64,000 nt of DNA. Origin: a plasmid. A model generated the notes under the pieces. That model saw only the letters and a list, made by a program, of their open reading frames with translations. It did not search any database and was not told the origin of the DNA. The stretch lies in assembly GCF_053078305.1 (NCBI RefSeq), contig NZ_CP166875.1. One strand, 5' to 3'. The position numbers and the translations under genes were made by a program. Shown here one piece after another: positions 30,416 to 64,000 of the stretch (positions are counted from its first letter, which is position 1; every line of letters starts with the position of its first letter).

Positions 30416-30434
30416 AAGTACGTTTCCGGGATTA

Positions 30435-31077: not shown

Positions 31078-31107
31078 AGGGCGGTGACCCTCTGCCCTTA
31101 AGTACGT
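31078..31107. terminator. hairpin after toxin copy 2
   Basis: Same 9-bp inverted repeat as at 30386. Confidence 0.4.
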
Positions 31108-31118
31108 TTCCGGGATTA

Positions 31119-45889: not shown

Positions 45890-46302
45890 TCCCGAATCCT
45901 CCATAGTCACATGTTCTGCGACACCGGGCGGTGCCGTGCCTCCATCTTTGCCGGGCCTGCAGGGATGCAAGGGCGCAAGGAAAGCCGCAGCCCGACGCGC
46001 ACGGCTGACGGGAGTTGGAGGGTGAGACCGCGAAATCTGAGCGGGTGAACGACCGGAAAATCACGGCAGACGGGAAGGAGGGACCGGGTGACCGCAGCGG
46101 TTCATCTTACCTTGCAACCCGCCCGCAGAAGCCCGGCTACGATGGAGGCACGGCACAGCCCGCACACGACGCTGAGGCCACATAACTGAAAACCCACAAG
46201 GCCATGCCCCGCATGGCCGGGTAAAGCGGAGCCTGCGGCGACATCCTTTTGCTCTTTCCGGGGACCGGCTGGAAAAGGCGGAGATTTTCCCCGCCAGCGT
46301 CA

Positions 46303-47073
46303 TCATTTCCGGATTTTCGCCAGTGCATCCGCCATGCTGCGGATTTCAGTCCGGGCTTCCAGGACCACCTCCCGCAGAATATCCCGGTCAAACCAGCGAC
46401 GGGACGGTTCATCAGGTATACGCAGCACATCGCAGGCCAGCCCACTGGACAGGATATGCTCCACACACTCACTGACCAGATACATTTCCACCGACGAAAA
46501 ACGAGCGCCCCGGTTCAGGATGGCATCGAGCACCACGGGCAGGTTTTCGTCGTCTTCATCGAGCCAGCAGGGGTGATCGCTTTCCTTCACAACCAGACGA
46601 AAGCGGCGCGTCTGGCGGGTCAGCAACGTCTGACCGGTGGTAGTCAACGCCGCACGGATACGCCGCGCATCTTCTGCCACCCGGCAACTGACACTGCATA
46701 CTGCATCGCGCACCGCATCAAGAACTGCCCTGATTTCGTCTTCGGTCAGCCATTCTCCGGCATACGGGAAAGACACCTGCGTTCCGTCTGCCGGAAGTAC
46801 CGGCAGCGACTGCCACTGACTGCCGGACAGAACAAGTTCCGCCCCGGTTCCGGTCAGTTTCTGAATGGCAGAGGCCAGGAGCGGCGGCAGTACGCCGCCG
46901 TGACGGTTGATAAGTAACGTCGCCAGCCGGGGCGCATCCAGCCGCACGTAAATGCTGATCCAGCCCGGATACTTCGGGTTCCGCTGGTCAACATCCGTTT
47001 CTTCCGGCCAGCCCTGCGCCAGCAACAGGTTGCTGGCGTGGCGATAAATCAGTGCATTCAGCGTTTCATTCAT
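46303..47073 (-). CDS. hypothetical leading-region protein (256 aa)
   Basis: SD GGGAG before ATG; same strand as ardA. Confidence 0.5.
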
Positions 47074-47117
47074 AATTCATGAACTCCCTGTATCGCCGCC
47101 CGAAGGCGGCGATAACA

Positions 47118-47552
47118 TCAGTCGTTTTCGTGTGTGTTGTTTTTCAGCAGGGTGCGGGCCTGATTAACCACCTCCTGACGGCGGGTGACGCATTCCGGGA
47201 CGGCGAGGCCATGATCCCGGGCGGCCCATTCACGTTTCCACAATGCCTGCTCAGCGGTCTGAATCAGGGACGCCAGCAGTTCAGCAGGGACGGTCACCTG
47301 GCGGTTTTCGCTCACGTTATTGATGATCTCCATCACCGCAGCGGAAGAAATACCGGACTCAATCCGCTGTTCTTCCGGGATGTCCTCCAGGCGTGCCAGG
47401 ACGGTCCTGATTTCATGACCGGTCAGAGAAATTTCCATACCGTCAGCCAGTGCCTGAATCTCTTCCGGGGACCAGACAACCAGCATCAGCGGCGTGTTCT
47501 CCGTATACTGCGCTGCCAGCTCACGGCAGAGCGTTTCGCATGTTCCGTACAT
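47118..47552 (-). CDS. hypothetical leading-region protein (144 aa)
   Basis: SD AAGGAGA before ATG 47552. Confidence 0.45.
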   Translation of the reverse strand: MYGTCETLCRELAAQYTENTPLMLVVWSPEEIQALADGMEISLTGHEIRTVLARLEDIPEEQRIESGISSAAVMEIINNVSENRQVTVPAELLASLIQTAEQALWKREWAARDHGLAVPECVTRRQEVVNQARTLLKNNTHEND

Positions 47553-47565
47553 TCTCGTCTCCTTC

Positions 47566-47787
47566 TCAATCTTTAAAGCACGCATCCAGTTCCAGAATTT
47601 CGGTATATGCCTCCATCAGGAGGCGGTTTGCGCGAAACAACGTCTGACGCACCAGACGTTCCGGCAGGGTGTCAGCATTAAAGCTGTACCGCCGCTCCAT
47701 CTCATTCATGGTTGTACGCAGGTCGCACATGGCATTGGCCACATCCGCCACTTCGGCGCGAAGTTTTTCGTGTCCGGCATAGTTCAT
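47566..47787 (-). CDS. hypothetical small protein (73 aa)
   Basis: SD GGAGG before ATG; start overlaps the methyltransferase stop. Confidence 0.4.
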   Translation of the reverse strand: MNYAGHEKLRAEVADVANAMCDLRTTMNEMERRYSFNADTLPERLVRQTLFRANRLLMEAYTEILELDACFKD

Positions 47788-48471
47788 TTACGCAGCCTCC
47801 GGCATAAACCAGTCATCATTCGCGGCCCCCTGCTGCATGGCCCGTTGTACGGCGGCAAGGCGTTGCTGCCCGGCACGGTGATACTGCTCAAGCAGCTCGA
47901 TACCGATATACCGGCGTCCGGACTGGAAGGCGGCCACGCAGGTTGAGCCGCTGCCTGCAAACGGGTCCAGCACAATTGCGTTCGGGTGTGTGAAGCTCTC
48001 AATCAGCGGTTGCAGGCTGGTAACGGGCTTTTCCGTCGGGTGATGACGATTGCCTGAATATTTCCAGCCCAGCACGTCCGGCAGCGGGTTTTGTGGCAGA
48101 CGTGGACGGCCTTTTGCCAGGATGTAGGCACATTCGTGGCGATAGCCCACATATGCGGCCTTCGATGTGTAGTTTTTGGTGAAGACCAGGTGACCAACAA
48201 CGCTGAATCCCGCATTTTTCCAGGCAGACATAAAACGATCGACGCGATTCCAGCCATAGAAGCTCACCATTAACGCGTCTTTTTTGAGTACGCGGTACAT
48301 CTCATTACAGGCCGGTTGCAGCCATTCATCGGTTTTATCGCCGGCAATGGTACGCCCCTGACGGTCACGAAAACCGACGAGGTACGGCGGGTCGGTGAGG
48401 ATGAAATCAATGGCGTTATCAGGGATACGGGCCATAACATCGATGCAGTTACCGAGGACAAAACGGGACAT
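47788..48471 (-). CDS. orphan DNA methyltransferase (N6-adenine/N4-cytosine class, DPPY motif)
   Basis: Motif IV FILTDPPYL; C-terminal AdoMet-binding segment VLDPFAGSGSTCVAA; SD GAAGGAG; no adjacent restriction enzyme gene. Confidence 0.7.
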   Translation of the reverse strand: MSRFVLGNCIDVMARIPDNAIDFILTDPPYLVGFRDRQGRTIAGDKTDEWLQPACNEMYRVLKKDALMVSFYGWNRVDRFMSAWKNAGFSVVGHLVFTKNYTSKAAYVGYRHECAYILAKGRPRLPQNPLPDVLGWKYSGNRHHPTEKPVTSLQPLIESFTHPNAIVLDPFAGSGSTCVAAFQSGRRYIGIELLEQYHRAGQQRLAAVQRAMQQGAANDDWFMPEAA

Positions 48472-48485
48472 ACCAAACTCCTTCT

Positions 48486-48830
48486 CTTACAGAGGGCACC
48501 GGGAGGGCCCCCCTGTGGTGCCCGTTCCCCGCTGCCTGTGGGCTGTTCACCGCGTCCGGTAACGGGTCAGGCCGACCGTGGAATACCGCAGCCGTCGTCT
48601 TTTTGACGGCAAGGTTATGCCGCGAAAGCGGCTTGAAGGGCGTTCATCAGAAAAGGGCGACGGGCTGGCGTACACTGTCACCGGTGCCAGCCGGGAGCGG
48701 TAAAAGCGCCCGTCCCGTGCCCGGCCGGACGCGGGACACTGACCACAGGCAGCGTTTATGCCGCGCCGCGTCAGCCGGCGCAGTAAAAAGAGGAGCACGG
48801 CGACATCCTTTGTCGGAAAAGAAACGGGCG
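48486..48830 (-). promoter_or_regulatory. long imperfect-hairpin element, family B copy 1 (Frpo/ssi-like ssDNA promoter candidate)
   Basis: Near-identical to 49800-50115; distal arms complementary (CGCTGCCTGTGG ... CCACAGGCAGCG); contains TTGACGG. Confidence 0.45.
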
Positions 48831-48855
48831 GTTGCCCGCCCGTCTCCGTCATACT

Positions 48856-49782
48856 TCATCCGCCATAATGCGCCACCTTGTCGACTATCCACGCAGGTCC
48901 GGTGACTTCCGGCAGCTCATCGTCATCTGTCGGGGAAGACCATTCCAGTTCCCCCCACAGCACATCAACGAGCTCTCCGCGCTCATACAACTGCCAGCCA
49001 CAGAAATTGCAGCCCTGTTCGGCGTACCAGTGCTCCAGCGTGCAGCCGAAACGGCGGCTTAATTCTGCAACAACGTCGCTTTCCGGCTGACACCACGGCG
49101 TGTCGAAATCTACCTGAATGAAGTTTTCCCCCTGACTGCTGATATTCAGGTCATACCCACAAGGCCACTTCACGCCATACCGTTCTGTATACCAGTGATA
49201 TGCAGAAGGAACACCGTTCAGAACACCGCCGTTAAAGCCATTCACTTCAATATCCAGGCGGGTCGGCAAAACCGTCAGCAGGTCAAACGGCATGGTTTTT
49301 TCCGGCAGTACGTTGTCACACAGACGGTTCCACCACACCGATACATCCTCGTTACCCCAGATGTCACACCAGTCACCTCTTTTTGCGGTGAAATGCACAG
49401 TGATAGTTTCCCTGACATCATCCGGTAACTCTTCCCAGCGACGCTGTCCAGTACCGCTCTGCAGCCAGAGTTCATGCAGCATCAGGCAGTTTTGCTCATC
49501 CAGCAGTACACCGTTCTGCAGGTGTGTCAGCCAGCGGGTGAACGCGATATTTTCCGGTGATACAGCACCACGTCCGGCAGCCGTCACTCCGGGGCACTGC
49601 TCAGAGCGGATATTTTCAGTGATCTGCAGAAGTCCGGCACTTCCGGCCAGAAACAGCTGAATACCTTCATTTGTGGCGCGGCGATAAAACGGTGTGACTG
49701 CACCGCTGGCCAGTCGTTTAATCTCAGCAATCTGTGCCGGTTCACCAGAAAAATACATACGATTCGAGCACCAGTTTGGCAT
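48856..49782 (-). CDS. hypothetical leading-region protein (308 aa), Trp/Cys-rich
   Basis: SD GAGGAG before ATG 49782; directly downstream of element B2. Confidence 0.5.
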   Translation of the reverse strand: MPNWCSNRMYFSGEPAQIAEIKRLASGAVTPFYRRATNEGIQLFLAGSAGLLQITENIRSEQCPGVTAAGRGAVSPENIAFTRWLTHLQNGVLLDEQNCLMLHELWLQSGTGQRRWEELPDDVRETITVHFTAKRGDWCDIWGNEDVSVWWNRLCDNVLPEKTMPFDLLTVLPTRLDIEVNGFNGGVLNGVPSAYHWYTERYGVKWPCGYDLNISSQGENFIQVDFDTPWCQPESDVVAELSRRFGCTLEHWYAEQGCNFCGWQLYERGELVDVLWGELEWSSPTDDDELPEVTGPAWIVDKVAHYGG

Positions 49783-49799
49783 GGGAATTCTCCTCACAG

Positions 49800-50115
49800 G
49801 AGCACCGGGAGGGAGCCCCTGTGGCGCCCGTTCCCCGCTGCCTGTGGGCTGTTCACCGCGTCCGGTAACGGGTCAGGCCGACCGTGGAATACCGCAGCCG
49901 TCGTCTGTTTGACGGCAAGGTTATGCCGCGAAAGCGGCTTGAAGGGCGTTCATCAGAAAAGGGCGACGGGCTGGCGTACACTATCACCGACGCCAGCCGG
50001 GAGCGGTAAAAGCGCCCGTCCCGTGCCCGCCGGACGCGGGACACTGACCACAGGCAGCGTTTATGCCGCGCCGCGTCAGCCGGCGCAGTAAAAAGAGGAG
50101 CACGGCGACATCCTT
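49800..50115 (-). promoter_or_regulatory. long imperfect-hairpin element, family B copy 2
   Basis: About 97% identical by eye to copy 1 over roughly 310 bp. Confidence 0.45.
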
Positions 50116-50159
50116 TTCCCCTGAACATCCGTCAGCCTTTCTCTGCGGCAAGATCAATC

Positions 50160-50385
50160 CTTAACAGAAAAAAAACCAACAAGCACCCACATAAAAAACA
50201 AAAAACCCAAGCAACACCCACACAAACAAAAAAAACACCCAGAAAACACCCAAAGACAAACAACAATAAAGTAATGAAACCCATAAAACACCCAAAAAAA
50301 GACAAAAAAGATTAAATAGCACTTGAACGCCACCAAAAAAATACTATTATGGGTATAGACACCCAAACGACACCCAAAAGAGGAT
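50160..50385 (+). repeat. parC-like centromere: A/C-rich iterons (ACACCCA and variants)
   Basis: At least 8 direct copies of (A)ACACCCA in a C/A-rich tract directly upstream of the ParM-like gene. Confidence 0.45.
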
Positions 50386-50388
50386 TTT

Positions 50389-51360
50389 ATGATTAAGATA
50401 TTCTGTGATGATGGTTCTACAGCGGTTAAGCTGGCATGGTTTGAAAACGGGGAACTAAAAACCCTCATTAGTCACAATTCTTTCAAGGAAGGCTGGAACA
50501 CATCAGGATTTGGCAGTGAGAAAACTTATAATTACTTAGTCGATGGAGAGAAATATGCGTTTGATACACATAACCCATCAGCAATAGTCACAACCAATAT
50601 TGAGTTTCAATATAGTGTAGAAAATCGTCTCGCTGTACATCACGCACTACTACAAACAGGAATGGAGCCTGGGGATGTAGAGCTTTGGGTTACATTACCT
50701 GTATCTGAATATTTCACTACAGATATGCAAGAGAATTCGGATAACATAAGAAAAAAAATAGAAAACCTGAAAAAAGAAATTACACTGAATAAAGGCAGCG
50801 TATTTTCAATCAAGAAAGTTCATGTATTACCCGAGTCTCTACCTGCAGCGTTGACCTCTCTCGAAGAGGATAAAGTCAGTGATCTTGAAACGTCCCTTGT
50901 CGTCGATCTTGGTGGAACAACTCTTGATTGTGGCGCTATAGCTGGCAGATATAAAAATGTAACACAAGTATCCGGAGAACCTGGTCTTGGCGTAACTCTG
51001 GTAACAACGGCGACAATGAATGCCCTGAAACAGGCAGGAACGCATACCAGCTACTATATTGCAGATCAACTGGTTAGAAACAGAAATGCTGATGATTTAT
51101 TCGAAATTGTTGTTAATGACAGCAGTAAAATAGATGATGTGAAATCAGTAATTGAAAACAGTATTACAAGACTTTCAGACAGAGTTATAAATCATTTACA
51201 CTCGTACAAAGGGATAAATCGTATATACATGACTGGTGGTGGTGCGGAACTAATCTACCCTGCAATAAAAAAAGCATTCCCCTTATTAAAGGATAAAGTA
51301 AAAATTTTACCAGATGCGCAATTAGCCCTTGTTATTTCTATTGCTGAAATAAATCGATAA
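50389..51360 (+). CDS. parM: actin-like plasmid segregation ATPase (ParM/StbA family)
   Basis: N-terminal IFCDDGSTAVKLAW and phosphate-2 motif VVDLGGTTLD; overall resemblance to R1 ParM; 323 aa. Confidence 0.75.
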   Translation: MIKIFCDDGSTAVKLAWFENGELKTLISHNSFKEGWNTSGFGSEKTYNYLVDGEKYAFDTHNPSAIVTTNIEFQYSVENRLAVHHALLQTGMEPGDVELWVTLPVSEYFTTDMQENSDNIRKKIENLKKEITLNKGSVFSIKKVHVLPESLPAALTSLEEDKVSDLETSLVVDLGGTTLDCGAIAGRYKNVTQVSGEPGLGVTLVTTATMNALKQAGTHTSYYIADQLVRNRNADDLFEIVVNDSSKIDDVKSVIENSITRLSDRVINHLHSYKGINRIYMTGGGAELIYPAIKKAFPLLKDKVKILPDAQLALVISIAEINR

Positions 51361-51371
51361 TGAGGTACAGG

Positions 51372-51923
51372 ATGAGTGATGAACGTCGTAAATTATGGCT
51401 ATACTTATATCCTGATGAGCCACAGCAAAAATCCGCAATAGAAACCATTGAAGAAATACCTCAAAGACAACGTTCTGATTTCTTCAGAGATAGTATTGTT
51501 GCAGGTATTGCATTATCAAAACTCGATAAACGATTACCTGCACTTGTATCTATGTTACTACAGCAAGATAGTAATATAGATACTCTTGTACGTATTTTAA
51601 AAATACTATTCCCCAAGCTTGATATTGACTCAACGGAAGATAAATCTACACTCTGTGCCGTTGCTTGGCAAAAAAGATGTCGGGATGAATTACAACAAGG
51701 CACACCATGGTCTGCCTGGTTTGCGATTAGTGAGGATGAATATAATCATCATCTTAATCATCCAGAATCAAACAGTCAGGTACGTGCATTATGGGCTTAT
51801 GATGAAAACGAGCAGAAAAAGGATATACAGGATAAAGAGAGAACGCCCTTTCCGGAGGCCAACACCAATACAAGTTCAGAAACATTGAGTAATGCTAAAA
51901 AATTATTTGGTAATTCAAATTAA
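51372..51923 (+). CDS. putative partition adaptor (ParR/StbB-position)
   Basis: Immediately follows the ParM-like gene; no motif recognised, assignment by position only. Confidence 0.35.
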   Translation: MSDERRKLWLYLYPDEPQQKSAIETIEEIPQRQRSDFFRDSIVAGIALSKLDKRLPALVSMLLQQDSNIDTLVRILKILFPKLDIDSTEDKSTLCAVAWQKRCRDELQQGTPWSAWFAISEDEYNHHLNHPESNSQVRALWAYDENEQKKDIQDKERTPFPEANTNTSSETLSNAKKLFGNSN

Positions 51924-51936
51924 TTATTCAAAGAAA

Positions 51937-51958
51937 ATCCCGGTCGAAGGGCCGGGAT
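51937..51958. terminator. bidirectional hairpin between convergent parR-like gene and helicase
   Basis: ATCCCGG-tcgaaggg-CCGGGAT. Confidence 0.45.
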
Positions 51959-52033
51959 GTTTACACGTTAACCACCCTGCAATTCTGCCACTCCTGATGC
52001 GGAATAACAGGACAGGACCGGGAACAGTCAGGC

Positions 52034-53560
52034 TCACTTTTTTCTCCGTCGTCTGCCACGCGCTCTGCTGCCTGTATTTTTTTCCCGGGATGCCGGCTCA
52101 CTCTGCAATGCCGGGGGAGGTACCTGTTTCAGGAGCTGGCGCAGCACACTGTTGAGGATCAGCGTCCGCCGAGCCCGTGTGGCAGCCACATAGAGCAGGT
52201 TGAGTTCATCCCGCAGTTTCTCTTCAAATTCCTGCACATTGTCCGTTCCCGGCTGCTCAAGCTCCTGAAAATCCTCATGCAGCCTCACTGTGTCCCATTC
52301 CAGGCCTTTGGCCCTGTGCACCGTGGTGACAGTCACGGCAGCAGCCTTTTCGTCACGGACCTCATATTTTCGCAGCGTGGCCACATGTTCCGGCAGCGGC
52401 GAAAACTTCTGAATGATAGCCACTGACTGCAGCATTTCCGCGTCCCGGCTTGCCTTTGCCGTCGCCTCATAGTCAGAGAACGACTCCCACGCAGCAAAGC
52501 GAGCCGGCTCCCGGATTTTTTCCGTCATTCCCACAGAAAACCACCACAGATCCAGCAGGCGGGCAACCGGCCAGGCATTCATACCGTTGATCCAGTATGT
52601 TTTCTGCTTCCTCCGGGCCGCGTGAAGCGCAGCACCAATCACGCCCATCACTGTCCGGCACAGCACCGCACAGTGAGGCATATTCCTCTCGGGTTTCAGC
52701 AACAGACGGTCATCACCGCCAAGCCCACAGACTTTTTTCGTCTCCCCGTCCAGAGCCAGCACAGCATTTGCCACATCTGCCACACAGGGACCGAAACGGA
52801 AACTGCCGGTAAGCCACAGCCTGTCTGCCGTGGCCAGAGAGGGGGTATTCAGCGCATCCACGGCACCCCGGAAGCGATAAATCTGCTGATGTGGATCACC
52901 CACCATCACCAGCGTTCCACGGTGGCGCAGGACCAGGTCGGAGATCACCGGACTGGCGTCCTGGGCTTCATCAAACAGGATTTCATCGTACTTTGCGGAC
53001 AGATCCGGCTGCGAAAGCTGGTACAGCTTCAGATACAGATCATGAACGACCGGAAAGTCATCACTGCGGTCGCACATTCTTTGCCAGAGACGCACGGCCA
53101 GCGGCAGCACCTCTGCTGCGCGCAGTGGCGGCCTGGCACGGACATGCACCTCAGACAACGTCGTGTCCGCACTGTTCATGAAAGCCTGTAGGGTTTCCCT
53201 GACGGCCGCAGCCAACGGCCACTGGCGCAGTGAAAGCGCCCCGGCGATATCAGTAATGCCCAGGGAAGGCACGAGACGGTGGGAGTAATGTCGTCCAAAT
53301 TCCGGCCACGCCAGCTGATGTGCAGTCCGGCAACAGACATTCACCGGGAAGCGTGCCTGAGCCTCCTCCCGGACAGACCGGTTGAATGCGATATAGAGCA
53401 TACGGCGTTCAGGCCGGGCCTGCGCATAAGCCACCAGTGTGGCTGTTTTGCCGGTGCCGGCAAAAGCCCTGACAACCAGTCGCTGTCCCTGCCAGTTAAT
53501 GACAGCCTGTTGTTCAGCGGTCGGAGCGTGACGGATTTTCCTGACCGGGTGCTGAGTCAT
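52034..53560 (-). CDS. UvrD/Rep-like superfamily-1 DNA helicase (about 508 aa)
   Basis: Walker A AGTGKTAT, motif II FDEAQD, C-terminal VTTVHRAKGLEWDTV; ATG overlaps the upstream stop (ATGA). Confidence 0.7.
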   Translation of the reverse strand: MTQHPVRKIRHAPTAEQQAVINWQGQRLVVRAFAGTGKTATLVAYAQARPERRMLYIAFNRSVREEAQARFPVNVCCRTAHQLAWPEFGRHYSHRLVPSLGITDIAGALSLRQWPLAAAVRETLQAFMNSADTTLSEVHVRARPPLRAAEVLPLAVRLWQRMCDRSDDFPVVHDLYLKLYQLSQPDLSAKYDEILFDEAQDASPVISDLVLRHRGTLVMVGDPHQQIYRFRGAVDALNTPSLATADRLWLTGSFRFGPCVADVANAVLALDGETKKVCGLGGDDRLLLKPERNMPHCAVLCRTVMGVIGAALHAARRKQKTYWINGMNAWPVARLLDLWWFSVGMTEKIREPARFAAWESFSDYEATAKASRDAEMLQSVAIIQKFSPLPEHVATLRKYEVRDEKAAAVTVTTVHRAKGLEWDTVRLHEDFQELEQPGTDNVQEFEEKLRDELNLLYVAATRARRTLILNSVLRQLLKQVPPPALQSEPASREKNTGSRARGRRRRKK

Positions 53561-54183
53561 TTTGCCGTTGCGTCCTCCCCGTCCGTCATCCCGGCCAGAG
53601 CGACCTGTTTTTTCTCCCACCGTCGGTCCCGGATGGCCAGCCAGCGTTGAGCATTTTTTGCCTCATCCTCAGAAACCAGCCCGGCAGGCTTACCGTCGAG
53701 GTCATAGCGGGTGGCACCGGTGACAGCGGTACGCAACAGATAGACACGGCGGGAGGTGATACAGGATACGGCACAGTCCCATTCATCCCGGGTGAGTCCG
53801 GCTTCAGGGTGCTCAGCCAGCCAGGCAGGAATATCGCGGGAGATACCGACCCTGAGAGGCAGAAAACCGCCGCCTTCAGCGCGAAGATGCGGGAAAATCG
53901 CCTTGACCTTTTCCATGCACTGGTCGGTGAACTCCCGTGTCCAGTGCTCTCTGAGGGGTCTGCGTGGTGGTCTTCCTTTCCTTTTTTTTCCGACGGCAGC
54001 AGGCGCAGGAGACGCATCCTGGATGGGGGCTGGCAGCTGCTCATCAGCAGCAGCCGGTGGTGCCCCCACTTCCGGTACAGGCGAAATGACAGTCTCTGTT
54101 TTATCGACGACAGGTGGTGGTGAAATAACGCGACGTTTTTTCACCACAATGACGGGCGTTTTCTTTTCCTGATTCCTGGCCAT
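53557..54183 (-). CDS. ProQ/FinO-domain RNA-binding protein (FinO-like)
   Basis: Basic/Pro-rich N-terminus; C-terminal domain aligns by eye with FinO (PLRVGISRDI ... GATRYDLDGKP ... EDEAKNAQRWL). Confidence 0.55.
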   Translation of the reverse strand: MARNQEKKTPVIVVKKRRVISPPPVVDKTETVISPVPEVGAPPAAADEQLPAPIQDASPAPAAVGKKRKGRPPRRPLREHWTREFTDQCMEKVKAIFPHLRAEGGGFLPLRVGISRDIPAWLAEHPEAGLTRDEWDCAVSCITSRRVYLLRTAVTGATRYDLDGKPAGLVSEDEAKNAQRWLAIRDRRWEKKQVALAGMTDGEDATAK

Positions 54184-54635
54184 TAATACCCCGACAAGAT
54201 TAAATTCTGGTTAACGATATCATTATACAGCGAATAATATAATTATGGTTCACGTATTATTATCCGTGACTCTTTCCTGGTAACTCCCGCATAATAACTT
54301 CACTTTTCCAGTATTCCAGAAGATGATGTTTTTTCCTCGATAATAAAAATGTGCCAATATGGAAATAAGAAATCGGATTTTTTATCAGCATACGCAAATT
54401 TTCAGATAACAATGAATACAGATGTATTTTATATACACAGATAAAACCGCGCAACAGACATAAATATGACAGTAGCATGAAAAAGCAGAGAGAGACAGGG
54501 TGATACAGAAAAGTAACTATTTTTTTAGCTATAGTATTATTGGTTTTACCTATTTTCGTGATTGTGTTTCTGTATATTGGGGGTTCGCGCCCATTTCCTC
54601 TAAAAGTCTCACCTTGCTTAGGTAATTAATTGAAT

Positions 54636-55217
54636 TTATTTATAAAACGTTGCAATTTTAGCATCATTTTTTATTGTTCTTTTTAACCTGAAGTACGTCG
54701 ATCGAGAGATACCTGTTTTTTCTGTCACACTGCCCAGAGATTCTCCCTGTGATATAAGCTCCAACGCTGTAGGCGTTCGTGGATGCTTCTTCCTGCCAAA
54801 TTTTACGCCTGCGGCAAGTGCCGCTATTCTTCCGTCGTTTGTCCGCTCCAGAATACGCTCACGTTCCGCTTCAGCTACAGCAGCAAGGATTTGGATAACC
54901 ATTTTGCCCATTGTCCCTTCTGTACTGAGACCGTTCTCCAGGAACCGGATGGCGATCCCCTTTTTGTAACAGCTATCAACCACACGAATCATGTCAGCAG
55001 TGTTACGCCCCAGTCGGTCCATTTTTGTACAGATGATTACGTCGTCTTTCTCTGCACGGGCCAACAACCGCTGTAGTCCTTCCCGTTCATCAGTTGCGCC
55101 AGTCATCATATCCGTAAAAATACGATCTTCCCGTACCCCGGCATTTTTTAGCTCCGAGATTTGATGTGTTAGCTTCTGATGACTGGTTGATACCCGTGCA
55201 TACCCCAATAACGCCAT
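54636..55217 (-). CDS. tnpR: serine recombinase (resolvase TnpR)
   Basis: N-terminal LLGYARVSTSHQ catalytic motif; C-terminal HTH. Confidence 0.8.
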   Translation of the reverse strand: MALLGYARVSTSHQKLTHQISELKNAGVREDRIFTDMMTGATDEREGLQRLLARAEKDDVIICTKMDRLGRNTADMIRVVDSCYKKGIAIRFLENGLSTEGTMGKMVIQILAAVAEAERERILERTNDGRIAALAAGVKFGRKKHPRTPTALELISQGESLGSVTEKTGISRSTYFRLKRTIKNDAKIATFYK

Positions 55218-55373
55218 TTTTAGTCTCACTTATCGTTTTTGACACTGCATGGTATCATAATGTACAAAATACGATTTTTGAAACCTGCTTTTATGCTGTT
55301 TTAGACAGGTATCAGATATCTTAATATTTGATACTAGCCATATTTAACAAATATTTAGCATTTTGGTAAATGT
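55218..55373. promoter_or_regulatory. res site region between divergent tnpR and tnpA
   Basis: AT-rich 156-bp divergent intergenic region; subsites not resolved. Confidence 0.4.
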
Positions 55374-58300
55374 ATGCAGAAGTACAAGAAAAGAATTAGT
55401 ATATTAACAAAAAGTGAAATAAATGAATTATATCAAGTCCCCTCTTTTAATCCTGTTGAAAGGGATGAGTTTTTTTCGCTGGATATCAGCCTTAAAAGAG
55501 AAATTGATAAAATAATAAATATAGAAAGCAGGGTGTATCTGATATTAATAACAGGGTATTTCAGATATAAACCTGTGATTCCTGAATTTACATTAAAAGA
55601 CGTAAAAAGGGATGTGAAATATATTATCCAGACATATTATAAAAACGAAAGTACTAATCTCAATTTAAACATACCTAAAAGTACAAAGTACCGCCTTGTT
55701 AAACGAATGCTTTCTACTCTAGGATTTGAACAACTCACCCCATCTATAAAAAATGAGTTAAGTGAACGTCTGAATGATGTTGCTACTATATGTATGGAAC
55801 CAAAATATATTTTTGATGAATTACTTGCTTTTTTAGGACAGCGGCGTATAGCTCTTCCTGGATACAGTACTGTCCAGAACCTCGTTTCAGATGCTTTAAA
55901 CTTTGAAAGGAAAAGGACAATTAATATTTTGTCAAAGAGAATTTATCCTGCCACTGCACAAAAGATTACATCCATCATCCATGATGATGGAATATTAAAT
56001 TCCATCAGGGGATATAATTATAGCACGAGAGACTTCTCAGCATCAGAAATAGAAAATGAATTAAGAACTCACAATGTGATAAGTAGTATTTACTATGAAA
56101 TAAAAGATATAATTAATTCATTAGGTATATCCCAGGGAAACATGGAGTACTATGCAACTATCGTAAAACACAGTACAACATTCAGACTTAAGCGACACCC
56201 TAAATGGCAAGGAATACTTTATTTGTGCTGCTACTTGTACTTCAGATACAGAGAGATAAATGATAAAATAATCACAGCCTTCAGATATTTAGTAAAAAAA
56301 CATAAAGACGCTTCAGTTTTGTTTGCAAAAGCTCGGGCAACAGAGGAAATAGATCTAATAAATAAAAAGCTTAAGTTTGCGAGTAAAATATTTAACTTCT
56401 TCGTTGATAGTAACATTGAAGACAGCATCCCTTTTGGATATGTTCGTGAAAAGGTTTTTTCACTTATATCGAAAGATGATATGCATCTTGTGAGTGAATT
56501 TTTTGACAAAAATAAAATCGATGTAATTGAATATCAATGGCAGTATATTGACAGCCATCACCTTAAGATCGCCAATTCAATCCGAAAGCTTTTTCTGGCT
56601 ATAGATATAGTATATGACAACGAGAAGTCTGTTATTGGCCAGCAAATTACTGCTGCCAAGGATGATCTCAGAGGAAAAGGAAAGCTGGATGCTAAGGATC
56701 TGAGGGTAATTCATCCATCCGAGAAAAATTACATTGTAAAAGAAGGAGAAATTAACACTCAACGATTCGAATTTCATATGTACAGCAGGGTATCTAACCA
56801 TCTGGAAAACGGTGTCTTTTATGCTGCGGAGAGTGAACAAAACAAGAGACTGGAAGATGATCTCATAGAACGAAGTTACTGGCATAAGAATAAATCGATT
56901 TTGATAGAGAAAACAGGCCTTGAACGACTTATCACACCAATAACGCAGACTCTTAATGAGCTGGAGAATACCTTTAGCGATAAACTGGCTCGTATAACCA
57001 TTGGAATAAACTCAGATGCTAATGAGTTTGTGAAAAAACAACCACACTCCAACAGATTACAGTGGAGTCTGGCCAGTAAAAAATGGAAGACCAGCATCGA
57101 TAATCCGATTTACAATCAGATAAAAAATATCGGAATAGTTGACGTAATGAAGTATGTAAACAATGAGACGAATTTTTTGTCTGTGTTTAATGCCATATCA
57201 TCCAGGAAAAATAATCTTGAAGCTGACTATAATGACCTTCTTGCCTGTATATTTGGTAATGGCGCAAATTATGGTGTTCACAGAATGGCATCTGCATCAG
57301 ACCGTAGTATTGGAATACTACGTGATGTGAATGACAAATTCATTCGTCCAGAAACAACAGGAATGGCCAACACAGTAATATCTGATGCAATTGCAAATCT
57401 TTCTGTATATAAATACTGGACGATAAATGAAGATTCTCCATTTGGAAGTGTTGATGGGCAGAAGCACACTTGCAGAATAAATACATTTAAAGCCCGTTAT
57501 TCTGCCAAGTATTTCAGAAAGGGGAAAGGGGTTTCTGCGATGACACTGGTATCTAATCATGTGCCATTATCAACTGTGGTAATTTCTCCAAATGAATATG
57601 AAGGTCATTTTGCATTTGACTTGTTATATAACAACACCAGTGAAATACAACCAAAGTCATTAGCGACTGACAATCATGGTATAAACAACGTTAATTTTGC
57701 GATTCTTGACATTTTTGGCTATCAGTTTTCACCACGTTATGCAAAATTCAAGAAAATATTTAATGAATTATTTGATGTTATACTGGAGAGTGATAAACTC
57801 ATTATAAAACTTAAAAAACAATTTAACTTTAAGCTCATTGAACATGAATGGGAAAACATCCAACATATTATTTGTTCTTTAAGCAGAAAAACAACCATTC
57901 AAAGTACGGTTGTTAAGAAGTTATCTAATACAAAGCGTAGCAACAAGACATTAGCAGCACTTCGGGAGTATGACCGAGTTATAAAATGCATATATGTCCT
58001 GGATTATGCTGACAATAAAACCTTAAGGCAATTTGTGCAACAAGCACTGAACAGAGGTGAAGCTTATCATCAACTAAGAAGAGCAATAGCATCAGTAAAT
58101 GGAAATCAATTTCGCGGTGGTAATGACTACCAAATAGATCAATGGAACGACTGTGCGAGGTTAATAGCTAATTGTGTAATCTATTATAATTCAGCAATAT
58201 TATCCAGGCTGGTCGAGAAATTTGAAAAAGAAAATAATAAAAAAGCGATAGATGTTCTGGCTAACTTATCCCCAGTAGCATGGAGACACATTCTCCTTGG

Positions 58301-58412
58301 AGGGAATTATTCTTTTGAAGATCAAGTTGCGATCACAAATTTGGACAGTCTTTTGGAGGGAGTAGACCCACTAAGTGATATCGGAGATATTGAGTCCGAA
58401 TATGACGGTTAA
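55374..58412 (+). CDS. tnpA: Tn3-family transposase TnpA (1012 aa)
   Basis: Size, N-terminal region and position inside the IR-bounded element. Confidence 0.8.
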   Translation: MQKYKKRISILTKSEINELYQVPSFNPVERDEFFSLDISLKREIDKIINIESRVYLILITGYFRYKPVIPEFTLKDVKRDVKYIIQTYYKNESTNLNLNIPKSTKYRLVKRMLSTLGFEQLTPSIKNELSERLNDVATICMEPKYIFDELLAFLGQRRIALPGYSTVQNLVSDALNFERKRTINILSKRIYPATAQKITSIIHDDGILNSIRGYNYSTRDFSASEIENELRTHNVISSIYYEIKDIINSLGISQGNMEYYATIVKHSTTFRLKRHPKWQGILYLCCYLYFRYREINDKIITAFRYLVKKHKDASVLFAKARATEEIDLINKKLKFASKIFNFFVDSNIEDSIPFGYVREKVFSLISKDDMHLVSEFFDKNKIDVIEYQWQYIDSHHLKIANSIRKLFLAIDIVYDNEKSVIGQQITAAKDDLRGKGKLDAKDLRVIHPSEKNYIVKEGEINTQRFEFHMYSRVSNHLENGVFYAAESEQNKRLEDDLIERSYWHKNKSILIEKTGLERLITPITQTLNELENTFSDKLARITIGINSDANEFVKKQPHSNRLQWSLASKKWKTSIDNPIYNQIKNIGIVDVMKYVNNETNFLSVFNAISSRKNNLEADYNDLLACIFGNGANYGVHRMASASDRSIGILRDVNDKFIRPETTGMANTVISDAIANLSVYKYWTINEDSPFGSVDGQKHTCRINTFKARYSAKYFRKGKGVSAMTLVSNHVPLSTVVISPNEYEGHFAFDLLYNNTSEIQPKSLATDNHGINNVNFAILDIFGYQFSPRYAKFKKIFNELFDVILESDKLIIKLKKQFNFKLIEHEWENIQHIICSLSRKTTIQSTVVKKLSNTKRSNKTLAALREYDRVIKCIYVLDYADNKTLRQFVQQALNRGEAYHQLRRAIASVNGNQFRGGNDYQIDQWNDCARLIANCVIYYNSAILSRLVEKFEKENNKKAIDVLANLSPVAWRHILLGGNYSFEDQVAITNLDSLLEGVDPLSDIGDIESEYDG

Positions 58413-58478
58413 CAACATGATAAATAATGGTTTTTATGCTAAGAGTGAGACTTTTGGAGGAAATGGGCGCAGAACCCC

Positions 58479-58702
58479 TGTATCTGCCGTTCGGTTTTTG
58501 CACGAAGTTTTTCTGAGCTTTTACCGAACTGCATACGTTGCAGTTTCGCAACCAGCGCCTTCAGCCGGTTGATTTCGGAAGCATAAGCCGCCACCCGCTG
58601 TGAGAGCAGGCGGTTGTATTCAGCCATCTGGCGGATGGTGTCCTGTTGCGTCTGCAACAGTGCCCGCAGGCGGGCGTTCTCATGAGCAAGTGAGGTGTCC
58701 AT
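58479..58702 (-). pseudogene. IS66 tnpC 5' fragment
   Basis: Leucine-zipper-like N-terminus (ENARLRALLQ...) ending inside the Tn3-family IR. Confidence 0.5.
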
Positions 58703-58721
58703 ATCCTCACTTTACAACGGG

Positions 58722-59069
58722 TTATATGCGGATTCCAGCGCGTTCCGTTCGTTTCGGGTGCTTCCAGTTGATACCTTCAAGAAGCATGGATAACTGAGCC
58801 GGAGTAAGGTGCACCTTGCCGTCACGGGTGACTGGCCAGACGAAGCGGCCCCGCTCCAGGCGTTTGGTGAAGAGGCACAGTCCGTCACTGTCAGCCCACA
58901 ACACTTTTATCTGGTCACCCCGGCGTCCGCGGAAGATGAACAGGTGTCCGGAGAACGGGTCATCCTTCAGGACGTTCTGAACTTTTGATGCCAGGCCGTT
59001 AAAGCCATTTCGCATATCGGTGATACCTGCAACCAGCCAGATACGCGAACCTGCAGGGAGAGATATCAT
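58722..59069 (-). CDS. IS66-family accessory protein TnpB (orf2)
   Basis: 115 aa with RIWLVAGITDMRNGFNGL motif. Confidence 0.65.
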   Translation of the reverse strand: MISLPAGSRIWLVAGITDMRNGFNGLASKVQNVLKDDPFSGHLFIFRGRRGDQIKVLWADSDGLCLFTKRLERGRFVWPVTRDGKVHLTPAQLSMLLEGINWKHPKRTERAGIRI

Positions 59070-59746
59070 CAGTGGCTGCTCCCTTTTATTTCGCGGATAA
59101 GTGTCTGTAATAACGCCGGCGTCAGTTTACCTTTAAGCCTGAGAGTTCCGGCCGGCAGAACCAGCTCACAACACAGACTGTCGGACGGTGTATTTATCTG
59201 CTCTGGTTCCTGTGCGGGGGCCGGGATTTTATTATCCGGCTCCGGCGTTAACGTCACGGGAAGCAGTGCCGGCATATTTTTTCCGGAAGGCAGCAGGCCA
59301 CCTTTCCGGTATTGATGGCGCCAGTTGAAGAGCAGGTTATCGTTGATTCCGTTTTCCCGGGCGATCTGCGCCACACAGGCTCCGGGCTGCAGTGACTGCT
59401 CCACTAAGGCGATTTTAAACTCATAAGGGAAGTTGGGCCGCCGGGGACGTTTTTTTACCACGGGGGCTTCGGATATAACGGTGCTTTCAGGACGTACGAC
59501 TGGTACCGTGGAAAATTGTCCGTAAAGGCAGGCATCAAGTTCCTGCTCCGACATGCCTGCGGGCAAAGGCCACGAAAGGCCAGCTCTCCGAAAGCGCACG
59601 AACATACTACAAACTGTTGATTTTGGTACACCCAGGCGACGCCCGGCCACAACCCGGGGTAAATGTTCTTCAAAGTGAAGACGTAAAGCTTCAGTGATCC
59701 AGGTCCGGTGTTTCATACGATAGTGTCCATTAAAAATGATGGACAT
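59069..59746 (-). CDS. IS66-family orf1 (HTH transposase accessory protein); true start may be 59716
   Basis: C-terminal half FPYEFKIALVEQSLQPGACVAQIARENGINDNLLFNWRHQYR typical of IS66 orf1; stop overlaps tnpB start. Confidence 0.6.
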   Translation of the reverse strand: MSIIFNGHYRMKHRTWITEALRLHFEEHLPRVVAGRRLGVPKSTVCSMFVRFRRAGLSWPLPAGMSEQELDACLYGQFSTVPVVRPESTVISEAPVVKKRPRRPNFPYEFKIALVEQSLQPGACVAQIARENGINDNLLFNWRHQYRKGGLLPSGKNMPALLPVTLTPEPDNKIPAPAQEPEQINTPSDSLCCELVLPAGTLRLKGKLTPALLQTLIREIKGSSH

Positions 59747-59798
59747 TATTTTTGTAGAGCCGGAGGAAACAGACCAGACGGTTTAAATGAGCCGGTTA

Positions 59799-59964
59799 CA
59801 AACAAATTCGCTTCATAAATTTCATAGTGCAGACCACATCCCCAATGAGCCTGCTTTTCCAGCCTGCTGATCACCACATCAGCCCGGATAACATCAAAGG
59901 GATTGCGGGAATGAATATTACGAATAAAGCCATCGGTACGTGCTGCTGACATATTTCTGCCCAT
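59799..59964 (-). pseudogene. 3'-truncated ORF interrupted by the IS66-family element
   Basis: SD AGAGGTG before ATG 59964; reading frame runs into the IS terminus; directly downstream of hairpin element A3. Confidence 0.3.
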
Positions 59965-60049
59965 CTTTAATACACCTCTGTTTTTTGCCCCCATCATCTG
60001 TTGAGTTTCGGGAGCCGCGGTTTTGACGTTTTGCGGGGACCTGCCTTTT

Positions 60050-60420
60050 GTTCCCTCCGGTATTCACCATCACCTGTTTGAGAACCTTCGCCGCAAGGGG
60101 CATCACTGCCACGGCCGGAAACGACTGTCCGGGGGCAGACCGCAAAAGTTTTTGCCTGCTTTTGGGCAAAAAGTTTTGCGGGATGTGCATTTCACCCCTG
60201 GACTGGCGGAGACGGTTGTGGCTGTCTTTGCCCCCGGCGACAGGGGCTTAAACAGGTGTATGGCACCGGACACAACAACGGGCAGGGACCCGCCGCAACG
60301 ACGAAGAGCGCGTGCGCGAAACGGCGTTGCCCCTTACATCCCGGCGGCCTTTTGCCGGGATGCCAGGAGCGCAGGCCACGGCGCGACAGAGGCGGCGCGA
60401 CCGGAACGGTCGCTGCAAGC
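60050..60420 (-). promoter_or_regulatory. repeated hairpin element, family A copy 3
   Basis: Shares the CAAAAGTTTTTG hairpin and the 60-bp block CGCAGG(T/C)CACGGCGCGACAGAGGCGGCGCGACCGGAACGGTCGCTGCAAGCC with copy 2. Confidence 0.4.
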
Positions 60421-60856
60421 CCGGGGTTTCGCGTCAGGGATGGAAGCCCGCCAGGGCGGAGACAGCTTCGCTGGCTCCGTTCACGACAGCCCGCCCCGCC
60501 TGGGGGACGCCCGGAAAAGGCATAAGCAGGAGAACAACAAAACAGACAATAATCAGGGCAGCAGTAATCAGAGTCAGAACAGGAGGAAAAAGAGAATAAT
60601 CAAAGGGAAGGTGATGTGATTTCCGACAGGTCATAAACAGAGAAGGCGGGGGAAAAGAACGGGCGCCGCAGGCGCGCGTTCATCCCCGTTCCCGGAGGGA
60701 ATCGGCCTTCCTGGCAGTCTGGTTGTTCATGCTGCTGCAATGTCAGCAAGGAGAAAGGGGCCACCGGCGAACCAGCAGCCCCTTTATAAAGGCGCTTCAG
60801 TGCAGTCAGACCAGCATCAGCCCTGAAAAGGCGGGCCTGCGCCCGCCTCCAGGTTG

Positions 60857-61015
60857 CTACTTACCGGATTCGTAAGCCATGAAAGCCGCCACCTCCCTGT
60901 ATCCGTCTCTGTAACGAATCTCGCACAGCGATTTTCGTGTCAGATAAGTAAATATCAACAGTGTGAGACACACAATCAACACACACCAGACAAGAGAGCT
61001 GCGTGGTAGTTTCAT
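60857..61015 (-). CDS. hok: Hok/Gef-family type I toxin
   Basis: Encodes [52 protein letters not shown]. Confidence 0.8.
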
Positions 61016-61072
61016 GGCCTTCTTCTCCTTGCGCAAAGCGCGGTAAGAGGCTATCCTGATGTTGTCAGACAT
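60857..61072 (-). CDS. mok-like overlapping leader frame
   Basis: In-frame upstream extension ([19 protein letters not shown]-) of hok, as in hok/mok/sok loci. Confidence 0.4.
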
Positions 61073-61289
61073 ATGGGATGCCTCGTGGGTTAATGAAAAA
61101 TTAACTACGGGGCTATCTTCTTTCTGCCACACAACACGGTAACAAACCACCTTCACGTCATGAGGCAGAAAGCCTCAAGCGCCGGGCACATCATAGCCCA
61201 TATACCTGCACGCTGACCACACTCACTTTTCCTGAAAATAACCCGCTCATTCAGGCTGTTTACGGGTAATCTGTGTGATTGTTGCCGCA

Positions 61290-62009
61290 TCACGCCGCCT
61301 CCCGGAGTTTGTTCGGCACCATCCACCGCTCCATCTCACGGACAGCGTGACCCGCCTCCCTTGCTGCCATACCTGCCTCTGCGATGACCTGCCAGAATGG
61401 CATATCCTGCCACTGCCAGCGTTCCATCCCGGCCAGTGACGGAAAACGCTCACCCCACTGCCAGAACAGGGTTTCCAGGTCATGCTCTGCCACCCGGTCA
61501 CTCCAGCGTGCATACCAGCTTCCGACTGTTTCCGGTGAATGGAACGCCAGTTCGATTTCAGCCTGAGCGACCAGCGTCTGGTACGCACGGGCTTTCTGCT
61601 CTGCCTCCCGTGCCTGCTGGCGGCTGTACTTCTGCATGACCAGCACGGATTTATGGCGACTGCGTTCCCTGACACGGAACCGCACCGACGGGAACAACCG
61701 CTCTGCTGCATCACCGGGAAGGGGAAGGAGGCAGACCTCGCCCTGTGTTTCAATCAGCACATCGACGGCATACAGCCACTGAGAACGGTTGCCGCGCAGT
61801 TCTTCTGCGGTCAGGGACGGCATGAAAAATCGCAGGTCAGACAGCGAAATCCTGCGGCTTCCGTTCAGACAGCGGAAAAACGCCCCCGCATACGGATATT
61901 CCGCCAGCGTGTTACCCTGGTGGCGGCGTTTTTCTGTCTCCGCCACCGCCCGCCATGCGGCCTGTTGCTCTGTGCTGAGAGGAACCAGTGCCTGTGAACG
62001 TGCGCTCAT
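61290..62009 (-). CDS. psiA: plasmid SOS-inhibition protein PsiA
   Basis: 239 aa starting [22 protein letters not shown]; coupled downstream of psiB. Confidence 0.8.
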
Positions 62010-62440
62010 GCCTGACCTCCTTCCGCCATCAGGATATGGATGATGTCACTGACGCTGTATCCCTGTTCATCCAGTGATGCCGCCAGTGCCAGTGAATGGC
62101 TGACAGCTTCCGGTGCAAACCGCCGCTGCACCTGAACCACCGCAAACGGCTCACCACCGGCATTCACCAGAACCAGCACCCAGACCTGAGAGACATCGCC
62201 CGGTGAACATAACGCCAGGTGAAAACGTTCGTGGGCAGGCGTGAAACGGACCTGGACGGGGAAAAAGCCGCCGAACTCGCTGCCGTACTCGCCATTCATC
62301 GTCCAGTTGTCCGGCGCATCCAGTTCCCGCATCACGGCGTGTGTCAGCTCACGGCGTTCATCACTTCCGGCAGCCCGGATATCTTCATATTCCTGTGCGC
62401 TCATGGTCTGTAATACATTCAGGGTCAGTTCAGTTTTCAT
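62006..62440 (-). CDS. psiB: plasmid SOS-inhibition protein PsiB
   Basis: [41 protein letters not shown]... recognised as PsiB. Confidence 0.9.
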
Positions 62441-62494
62441 CACGGTATCTCCCTTGCTGCCGCCCCGTCTCCGGCGGGGCGGTGTGGTTGTTCA

Positions 62495-64000
62495 TCAGGC
62501 GGCATCAGCCAGGTTATCGGCGCGTTCAGTGGCATCCGTCTGTGGACGTGGTGAACCCATCCAGCCAGGCACCCAGCGGTTGTCTTTCATGTGGAACTCT
62601 GCATGTTCAGCGGCATCGCCTTTCTTCATCTTCTCCGCGTCCCGTGCGGCACCGGACAGTCCGGCATCATTCAGGGCATCGATAATCTGCGGCTTTTTCA
62701 GGTGACCGAAGAAGTTTGCTTTTGTCGGCTGCCACCAGTCACGCATGTGAAAGCCGATGGCGCTCTCCAGCGAGTCCAGCGGACTGCGTGACGTGTGACC
62801 ATACTCGCGGGTCTGAACGCCGTGGATGCTGCACGCGGTGCAGAAACTGAGCAGTGATAACAGCACGTCCTGGCTGAGTGACAGGAACGTCGTCATGTCC
62901 CGTGCCCATCCCTCCGGTAACAGGGCAGCAAGACGGGCTTTTTCTGCCATCATCGCCATGAATGCGGCACCGTCCTTCCCCGATGGCGCATCGCTGGTCA
63001 GCGAATAATGTTTACATTCCAGGCTGATTTGTGCTGGTTTACTGTACGCTCCGCTGCCAAACACATTCAGGCAGAGCGTCCATGCCAGCAGTGCCAGAGA
63101 TTTGTCCGGTTGCTGCATGAGTGCCGCCTGGACTGCCAGCGTGCGTTCGGAAGACATTTTCGTCAGCAGTGGCAGACTGATTTCCTCCACTGACGCTTTC
63201 TCCTGCACCTGTTCCGTGCGGTCAGCGTCGTCAGTCACGTCATCTTCACTGCGCAACTGCACACCACGCTGGACACACACATTACCGTAACGCCAGGACA
63301 CCACCACGCCACTTCCGGCACGCATCTCCGGCGTCCACGCCCTGACCTTCGCCATGCAGTCAATCAGCTTCATTTCTGCTGCCAGCAGGTCAGATTCCTC
63401 ACACTGGTTTTCCAGCGCGTCGTAACGCATCATCAGTTCGTTCAGGCGTTCTTCTTCTGCCTCCGTCAGCACCGCTTCCGGCTCCGGCAGGTTGCGGTAT
63501 GCCCGGGAATCTTCACGGCACTCACCGACAGGCTCCATGCGTCCGGCGCACCATTCCCAGCCTTCGGCTTCCCGAAGGTGTTCAGCGACAGCCTGGAGTT
63601 TTTCCAGCAGGGCGGCATCGAGCGCCACGCAGTCCACATAGCCACCCTCGTCATCGCTGAACAAATCAGTACGCAGTTCGTCAGGTGAGAAAGCATCAGC
63701 CCCCACGAAGCGGAATTTAGTGTTGTCCTTCACCGCCACTTCACTTTCCGTAATCAGATTGCGGATAACCCGCACATCCGGTTTACCGCCCCATCCTGAC
63801 TGGCAGGCCGCTTCAAACACCTGCACCTGACGCGCGGTGTCGTTCTCCAGCGCCAGCGCCTGACAGTGCTCGGTGGTGATGCGGTCTTCTGCCAGCGCAT
63901 CGAGGATGACAGGCGCAAGGTCTGCCAGTTTCAGCATTCGCTGAACGTGGCGGGGCGAATAACCCAGCAAATCACCGATTTGTGCAGGTGTTTTGCCTTC
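62495..64000 (-). CDS. ParB-like nuclease-domain protein of the leading region, 5'-truncated by window end
   Basis: Frame stays open to the window edge; N-terminal visible part has ParB-type HTH (IGDLLGYSPRHVQRMLKL). Confidence 0.55.
   Translation of the reverse strand, partial: EGKTPAQIGDLLGYSPRHVQRMLKLADLAPVILDALAEDRITTEHCQALALENDTARQVQVFEAACQSGWGGKPDVRVIRNLITESEVAVKDNTKFRFVGADAFSPDELRTDLFSDDEGGYVDCVALDAALLEKLQAVAEHLREAEGWEWCAGRMEPVGECREDSRAYRNLPEPEAVLTEAEEERLNELMMRYDALENQCEESDLLAAEMKLIDCMAKVRAWTPEMRAGSGVVVSWRYGNVCVQRGVQLRSEDDVTDDADRTEQVQEKASVEEISLPLLTKMSSERTLAVQAALMQQPDKSLALLAWTLCLNVFGSGAYSKPAQISLECKHYSLTSDAPSGKDGAAFMAMMAEKARLAALLPEGWARDMTTFLSLSQDVLLSLLSFCTACSIHGVQTREYGHTSRSPLDSLESAIGFHMRDWWQPTKANFFGHLKKPQIIDALNDAGLSGAARDAEKMKKGDAAEHAEFHMKDNRWVPGWMGSPRPQTDATERADNLADAA

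Follow-up and report, generated by a model that had tools for sequence, protein, structure and literature searches.

Tn3-family transposons move by a replicative pathway. In the established model for this family the transposase TnpA, a DDE enzyme, nicks the 3′ ends at terminal repeats of ~38 bp and links them to an AT-rich target that is cut with a 5-bp stagger. Replication produces a cointegrate, which is then resolved at the site res by the serine resolvase TnpR. Each copy in a cointegrate has one donor and one target flank, and intramolecular events lead to a deletion (in cis) or an inversion (in trans), with unmatched flanks. Here we describe such an element in a 64,000-nt stretch of a plasmid (contig NZ_CP166875.1 of RefSeq assembly GCF_053078305.1), which we refer to as the window. 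The element is a 3.9-kb Tn3-family transposon that abuts a truncated insertion sequence (IS) of the IS66 family.

The closest described elements are Tn3 and gamma-delta (Tn1000). Like the window transposon they have divergent tnpR and tnpA genes with a res region (putative in the window) in between, a serine resolvase that can be aligned over its full length, ~38-bp repeats beginning with GGGG, a 5-bp AT-rich target duplication and a TnpA with a DUF4158 and a Tn3 DDE domain. Tn3 carries bla, whereas the window transposon is without a passenger gene, is only 3.9 kb long and is AT-rich (32–38% G+C, compared with 54–60% on both sides of it). Tn4430, another member, uses a tyrosine recombinase (TnpI) and not a serine resolvase. 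The Tn4430 transposase gave the only matches to solved structures (PDB 7QD4–7QD8). These cover the catalytic C-terminal half of the window TnpA (residues 450–983, E ~1e-37, and 6e-37 for 7QD4), while the N-terminal DNA-binding half is unaligned in the reported match.

For the flanks, the best comparison is with derivatives of Tn1331 and TnAs3 (He et al., 2016; PMC5142620). As in the window, these have one original and one new flank and have lost one 5-bp duplication, a neighbouring gene is cut exactly at the transposon end, and DNA from two plasmids is joined. Deletions that abut the end of a Tn3-family element and have lost one 5-bp duplication were ascribed to intramolecular replicative transposition in cis and cointegrates to the intermolecular outcome, and hybrid plasmids were documented (He et al., 2016; PMC5142620). 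That work had sequences of precursor and product plasmids alike, whereas here the pathway is deduced, as the collections searched yielded no precursor and no reciprocal product.

Judged by its sequence, the window transposon sits exactly where the backbone of an I-complex plasmid meets an F-type segment carrying a remnant of the IS66-family element ISCro1. Both junctions lie within 2 nt of the transposon tips. Both elements are known from public records, and such a signature of rearrangement is a textbook one; this is known biology, and no new mechanism is implied.

Structure and copies of the transposon

The transposon consists of the following parts, where IRL and IRR are the left and right inverted repeats and ORF is open reading frame:

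54579–58478, plus strand: complete Tn3-family transposon, 3,900 bp, without passenger genes (IRL, tnpR, res region, tnpA, IRR)
54579–54616, plus strand: IRL, ~38 bp, GGGGGTTCGCGCCCATTTCCTCTAAAAGTCTCACCTTG (inverted-repeat search, alignment)
54636–55217, minus strand: tnpR, serine resolvase, 193 aa (PF00239, E = 5e-38); the ORF extends to a GTG at 55229
55230–55373, no strand: 144-bp intergenic region between the divergent tnpR and tnpA, presumed res site (palindrome and mosaic breakpoints)
55374–58412, plus strand: tnpA, intact Tn3-family DDE transposase, 1,012 aa (PF01526, E = 5e-117; PF13700, DUF4158)
58441–58478, minus strand: IRR, reverse complement GGGGTTCTGCGCCCATTTCCTCCAAAAGTCTCACTCTT (inverted-repeat search, alignment)

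The terminal arms at 54579–54612 and 58445–58478 read GGGGGTTCGCGCCCATTTCCTCTAAAAGTCTCAC on the left and, reverse-complemented, GGGGTTCTGCGCCCATTTCCTCCAAAAGTCTCAC on the right. They match at 30 of 34 positions when aligned ungapped from the tips, or alternatively with one substitution and a 1-nt indel pair. Within the window the 26-mer core common to both arms has just two occurrences, which are inverted relative to each other, where shuffled sequences predict none.

TnpA scored 605 bits against NF033527 (“Tn3 family transposase”; cut-off 500). TnpR aligned over its full length with the resolvases of gamma-delta (1GDT, E = 3e-51) and Tn3 (5CY1, 2e-49), including the N-terminal YARVSTS serine motif. 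The intergenic region holds a 26-bp palindrome, GTATCAGATATCTTAATATTTGATAC, at 55309–55334, whose 11-nt arms are 91% complementary and which is a candidate for the crossover subsite I. In tnpR modules from plasmids of Hafnia, Serratia, Citrobacter and E. coli, homology to the window is lost at 55335, one base past the palindrome. This break fits an exchange at the crossover site of a putative res.

A megablast search of PLSDB yielded 3,900-bp copies with 100% identity in pFHI_NMBU_11_01 and pFHI_NMBU_11_03, which belong to a single E. coli strain, and copies with 99.4–99.6% identity in plasmids of E. albertii and Salmonella. All matches begin and end at window positions 54579 and 58478, which are the exact ends of the transposon. 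We read 15 other copies from plasmids and chromosomes, making 16 with the window copy, of which 12 are plasmid-borne and four chromosomal. The length is 3,899–3,900 bp in 14 of the 15, and the remaining copy is interrupted by an IS. All 15 start with GGGGGTTCGCG and finish with GCAGAACCCC, at differing sites that are both chromosomal and plasmid.

Perfect 5-bp duplications were seen in half of the copies (8 of 16; AACAT, TATTA, GAATA, TATCT, AGATA, TATTT, TTATT and GTATA) and a 6-bp duplication, AAAAGA, in one further copy (L017, 9200–9206 and 13105–13111). The tip of IRL has five Gs, as the clean duplications AACAT and TATTA of copies L001 and L003 establish. A relative from Citrobacter, 87% identical, has perfect repeats and the duplication TTATT. 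At least four of five positions are A or T in all nine verified 5-bp duplications. Six of the 15 other copies have no duplication. With the window copy included this is true of 7 of the 12 plasmid-borne copies, whereas the chromosomal copies all have a duplication (4/4), so that copies lacking one are confined to plasmids. On the basis of this difference between plasmids and chromosomes, unmatched flanks are a recurrent plasmid-rearrangement signature of this transposon.

The same tips at 15 other sites, with target duplications at nine of them, mean that the transposon is mobile elsewhere. It has the traits of the Tn3 family, namely a DDE TnpA, ~38-bp repeats that start with GGGG and a 5-bp duplication at other copies. 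Taken together, its features make it a bona fide, intact and cargo-free Tn3-family element with the Tn3/gamma-delta gene layout, which has evidently been active recently. The original prediction, made from the letters of the window, had proposed a minimal tnpR-res-tnpA element of this family with inverted repeats at 54579–58478; the protein domains, the repeats and the tips shared with other copies bear this out, with res as a putative part.

The exact TnpA protein is present on 364 contigs, with records from E. coli, E. albertii and Salmonella, and the exact TnpR protein on 841. The RefSeq labels are generic only (“Tn3 family transposase” and “recombinase family protein”), and a literature search by accession and by repeat sequence found no name for the transposon.

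At locus L016 we observed an extra IRL (8929), 277 bp upstream of a complete copy (9206). It adjoins a second, different Tn3-family element with a resolvase and a split transposase. Another match, H14, is an enterotoxigenic E. coli plasmid with a fragment of the transposon; it has no relation to the window junction and was set aside.

The two flanks of the window copy

The flanks contain the following features:

46406–54578, no strand: IncK2/Z-type I-complex backbone (parM, a stability gene, a UvrD-like helicase gene, a ProQ/FinO-family gene and an AT-rich intergenic region)
58479–59799, minus strand: truncated ISCro1 (IS66 family), nt 1379–2699 of 2,699, with 100% identity to the intact copy in pSTM32_108
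58479–58702, minus strand: 5′ fragment of ISCro1 tnpC, codons 1–75 of 523 (tblastn 100%; PF13007, LZ_Tnp_IS66)
58722–59069, minus strand: ISCro1 tnpB, IS66 Orf2 accessory protein, intact (PF05717, E = 5e-40; NF033819)
59069–59746, minus strand: ISCro1 tnpA, accessory helix-turn-helix protein, intact (PF01527; NF038385, E = 1e-88)

On the left, positions 1–46000 of the window are an I-complex transfer region. The backbone that follows is colinear with the IncK2/Z-typed I-complex plasmids pJNE170426-2 and pL2-87 up to 54578/54580, with 99.1–99.98% identity (99.98% over 49762–54580). Its last five nucleotides, ATATT (54574–54578), are the presumed target half-site. Without the transposon the backbone of the relatives reads CTGTATATTGGACAATGAG, and past the junction it continues with ATATTGGACAATGAG into a 3′-5′ exonuclease gene, yacAB and repA. 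This continuation was not found in the window.

The IS on the right is identical (100% over 1,321–1,323 nt) to copies annotated as ISCro1 family in RefSeq. Its length, 2,699 bp, was set by three intact ISCro1 copies that are flanked by 8-bp duplications (AAACAAAC in L007, pSTM32_108; GGATATCT in L010; TGAATACC in L011). The intact element has both terminal repeats (GTAAGCG/GTAACCG...), and the window retains the tnpA-proximal one only, GTAACCGGCTCATTTAAACCG.... At the point where the transposon now joins it, intact ISCro1 reads GCTTCCTGTATCTGCC. In IS66 elements tnpC encodes the DDE transposase. In the window, blastn and tblastn detected no further ISCro1 sequence, TnpC residues 76–523 included. 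Lost are nt 1–1378, with one terminal repeat and 448 of the 523 residues of TnpC, and of the 8-bp duplication, too, one copy is missing. The IS cannot move on its own and is the remnant of an IS66-family member, not a functional one. The interrupted tnpC frame runs into IRR and stops at 58439, which gives an 87-aa hybrid ORF (58439–58702, minus strand) of residues 1–75 and 12 further codons; this ORF is absent from a collection of 15 billion proteins.

These results settle most of what had been claimed for the right side. The IS66-family neighbour, the tnpC frame of about 75 codons and the absence of the rest of tnpC all hold, the frame being exactly residues 1–75. The outer end of the IS had been placed at 59798; the intact ISCro1 copies move it to 59799 (...GAGCCGGTTAC). 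The history originally proposed was an insertion into the IS with an adjacent deletion. It is incomplete, as the DNA to the left of the transposon does not come from beyond the IS and is I-complex backbone instead. A comparison with relatives lacking the insertion, which had been suggested as a check, gave the ancestor of each flank (uninterrupted backbone and intact ISCro1), though not the join itself.

The window copy is flanked by ATATT on the left (54574–54578) and TGTAT on the right (58479–58483), which are not direct repeats. Each junction has a 2-nt ambiguity, of the backbone ATATTGG with the GGGGG of IRL and of the ISCro1 ...TTCC with the ...CCCC of IRR. The lack of a clean direct repeat, which the original prediction had also noted, holds under every alternative boundary choice. 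ATATT has five of five A+T positions and TGTAT four of five. Only 13% of the pentamers of ISCro1 have at least four A+T positions, and only 4.5% of those of the backbone have five. Both flanking pentamers look like genuine targets of the transposon.

The I-complex backbone natively has the hexamer CTGTAT at 54570–54575, 3 nt to the left of IRL, and ISCro1 has it at the IRR junction (58477–58483, CC/TGTAT). The chance of finding TGTAT within 12 nt is 0.7–3%. We considered the TGTAT near IRL as a shifted duplication or as a microhomology join and rejected both, since it is native backbone and lies off the join. The repetition is probably a coincidence or reflects a similar target context. The matches H9 and H10, which ran 8 nt past IRR, were likewise rejected as sharing the ISCro1 flank, as the flank there is TGGATATG.

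Origin of the join

From the anatomy of the locus, its exact ends, the origins of its flanks and the mobility of the transposon elsewhere we infer a pathway and an order of events. We consider it fairly probable that the transposon was inserted at one site and that a second TnpA-mediated event into the other followed. It would first have inserted at one of the two AT-rich sites, ATATT in the I-complex backbone or TGTAT in ISCro1, and a replicative event would then have hit the other. In an intramolecular version, in cis, the DNA between the transposon and the new target would be deleted and one copy with unmatched flanks would be left; in an intermolecular version the window would be one junction of a cointegrate. 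As the outcome, ISCro1 would have lost nt 1–1378 and remained as an immobile remnant. Because both pentamers are target-like and the joins fall exactly at the tips, we ascribe both flanks to transposase chemistry and not to random deletion. Of the two versions we favour the deletion, as tnpR and res look intact and should resolve a cointegrate. Either flank could be the original site.

Some observations count against this proposal. The window, which ends 5.5 kb right of the element, contains neither a second copy of the transposon nor a reciprocal junction, and an unresolved cointegrate would be unexpected with tnpR and res seemingly intact. The same structure would result if two copies had recombined or if the assembly had been joined wrongly across the 3.9-kb repeat, and the sequence does not separate these from transposition. 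In addition, the history of the join is not reconstructed from data, as precursors and reciprocal products were not found. Both actual junctions are absent from PLSDB, where a megablast with 54400–58700 returned no record that extends past the transposon ends, and from the RefSeq complete E. coli genomes. The exact 43-mer of the right junction has no match in the GTDB representative genomes or the JGI metagenomes, and the two hybrid ORFs that the junctions create are not on record by exact look-up. Neither precursor insertion is present in PLSDB. The reciprocal junctions that we predict are ...GCTTCCTGTAT/GGGGGTTCGCG and GCAGAACCCC/ATATTGGACAATGAG; synthetic queries (ISCro1...TGTAT with IRL, and IRR with ATATTGGACA...) had no match in the RefSeq complete E. 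coli genomes.

The same product, indistinguishable from the observed structure, would arise if two independent insertions, one at ATATT and one at TGTAT, had been directly oriented within a single molecule or within two fused plasmids, and recombination by TnpR at res or by RecA had deleted the interval and left a single hybrid copy. That both flanks are target-like AT-rich pentamers agrees with this, and hosts with several copies exist, FHI_NMBU_11 having identical ones on two plasmids. Nevertheless we regard two-copy recombination as unlikely. Target immunity, established for the Tn3 family, would make another copy on one replicon less likely, and neither precursor insertion is known from PLSDB or from the RefSeq complete E. 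coli genomes. The window copy also shows no internal mosaicism and is 100% identical to the matches H1 and H2, which is uninformative if the parents were identical. An assembly artefact, in which an I-complex replicon and an F-type replicon with a copy inside ISCro1 were joined through the identical 3.9-kb repeat into a chimeric contig, draws on the same strain with identical copies on two plasmids. The transposon is longer than short reads, both flanks are ordinary-looking targets, and neither junction occurs in any other public sequence searched, the hybrid ORFs also being off record. Finished PLSDB plasmids (L002, L004, L014), however, are also without a duplication, so that real rearrangements at this transposon are common, and the window itself shows no sign of a join error. 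We think an artefact quite improbable.

We give a similarly small chance to the window being a junction of a stably maintained cointegrate of an I-complex and an F-type plasmid, with two transposon copies despite an apparently intact resolvase gene. If it were, this would imply a defect in res/TnpR resolution or selection for the fused replicon, and it would identify this transposon without cargo as one that repeatedly drives plasmids to fuse, in view of the 7 of 12 plasmid copies without a duplication. Least credible, and in our view very improbable, is the literal form of the earlier model, namely an insertion into ISCro1 tnpC followed by a transposase-independent (illegitimate or microhomology) deletion leftward that ended by chance at the IRL tip. 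The 2-nt overlaps (GG at IRL and CC at IRR) can be read as microhomology, but such a deletion must stop at most 2 nt from the tip and on a pentamer with five A+T positions (4.5% of the backbone). The shared CTGTAT lies off the join and so is no mediator.

For annotation, we propose a complete Tn3-family transposon and a truncated ISCro1, with the join marked as a point of rearrangement between replicons or possible misassembly. The unmatched ATATT/TGTAT flanks are a unique lineage marker for plasmid epidemiology. The transposon itself, as a widespread, cryptic 3.9-kb element often located at plasmid rearrangement junctions, is useful when hybrid plasmids are reconstructed.

Plasmid regions around the locus

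Beyond ISCro1 the window continues with:

59800–64000, minus strand: F-type leading region, with ISCro1 inserted at AAACAAAT (59800–59807) (NF010258, NF010255; similarity to IncF plasmids)
59979–60429: repeat element (a hok region is also present)
61290–62009: psiA
62006–62443: psiB
62495 onward: parB-like gene, leaving the window

This segment (59800–64000) is 94–97% identical to IncF plasmids. In all eight contexts read for the exact PsiA protein (8/8) the order was ssb, parB, psiB, psiA, hok, DUF932, SLT, traM, traJ and traY. The psiAB region is only 87% identical to the version in the I-complex relative. We considered whether the right-hand psiAB segment is the I-complex plasmid's own leading region, relocated, and rejected this because of the 87% identity, the F-type hok and the position of PsiA beside F tra genes.

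The presumed ISCro1 target AAACAAAT resembles the duplication AAACAAAC in pSTM32_108 (L007 4322). In the window, pF95-3 and pESBL3171-IncF, ISCro1 has inserted independently and in one orientation, each time within ~270 bp of one gene of the F leading region (59800–59807 in the window; 7322 in L010 and in L011). This may mean that ISCro1 prefers certain targets or that the region is a hot spot.

The I-complex part of the window (45897–46248) is without the ssb, parB, psiB and psiA block that pJNE170426-2 has at 14681–21277. Among I-complex plasmids it is common for ssb-psiAB to be missing from its usual position (116 PLSDB records), and because of this we consider the missing block probably unrelated to the transposon event.

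A dispersed repeat of ~330–450 bp, with 83–96% identity between copies, was found at 41304–41634, 44708–45207, 48482–48811, 49788–50116 and 59979–60429, with copies in the I-complex as well as in the F-type leading region. We presume that it is a leading-region repeat of the single-strand promoter/ssi type. Position 49763 corresponds to a site that carries a group II intron (ltrA) in pJNE170426-2 and pL2-87 (L005 3358–5763) and is empty in the window. The segment 25079–26918 has no counterpart in pJNE170426-2; it contains a 527-aa ORF (25265–26848) that has the N-terminal domain of a TnsA-like endonuclease together with a sigma-70 region 4 helix-turn-helix. Finally, 30244–30673 and 30945–31356 form a tandem-like duplicated segment, which corresponds to the pair of loci for dqlB, a DinQ-like type I toxin, in the annotation of pJNE170426-2.

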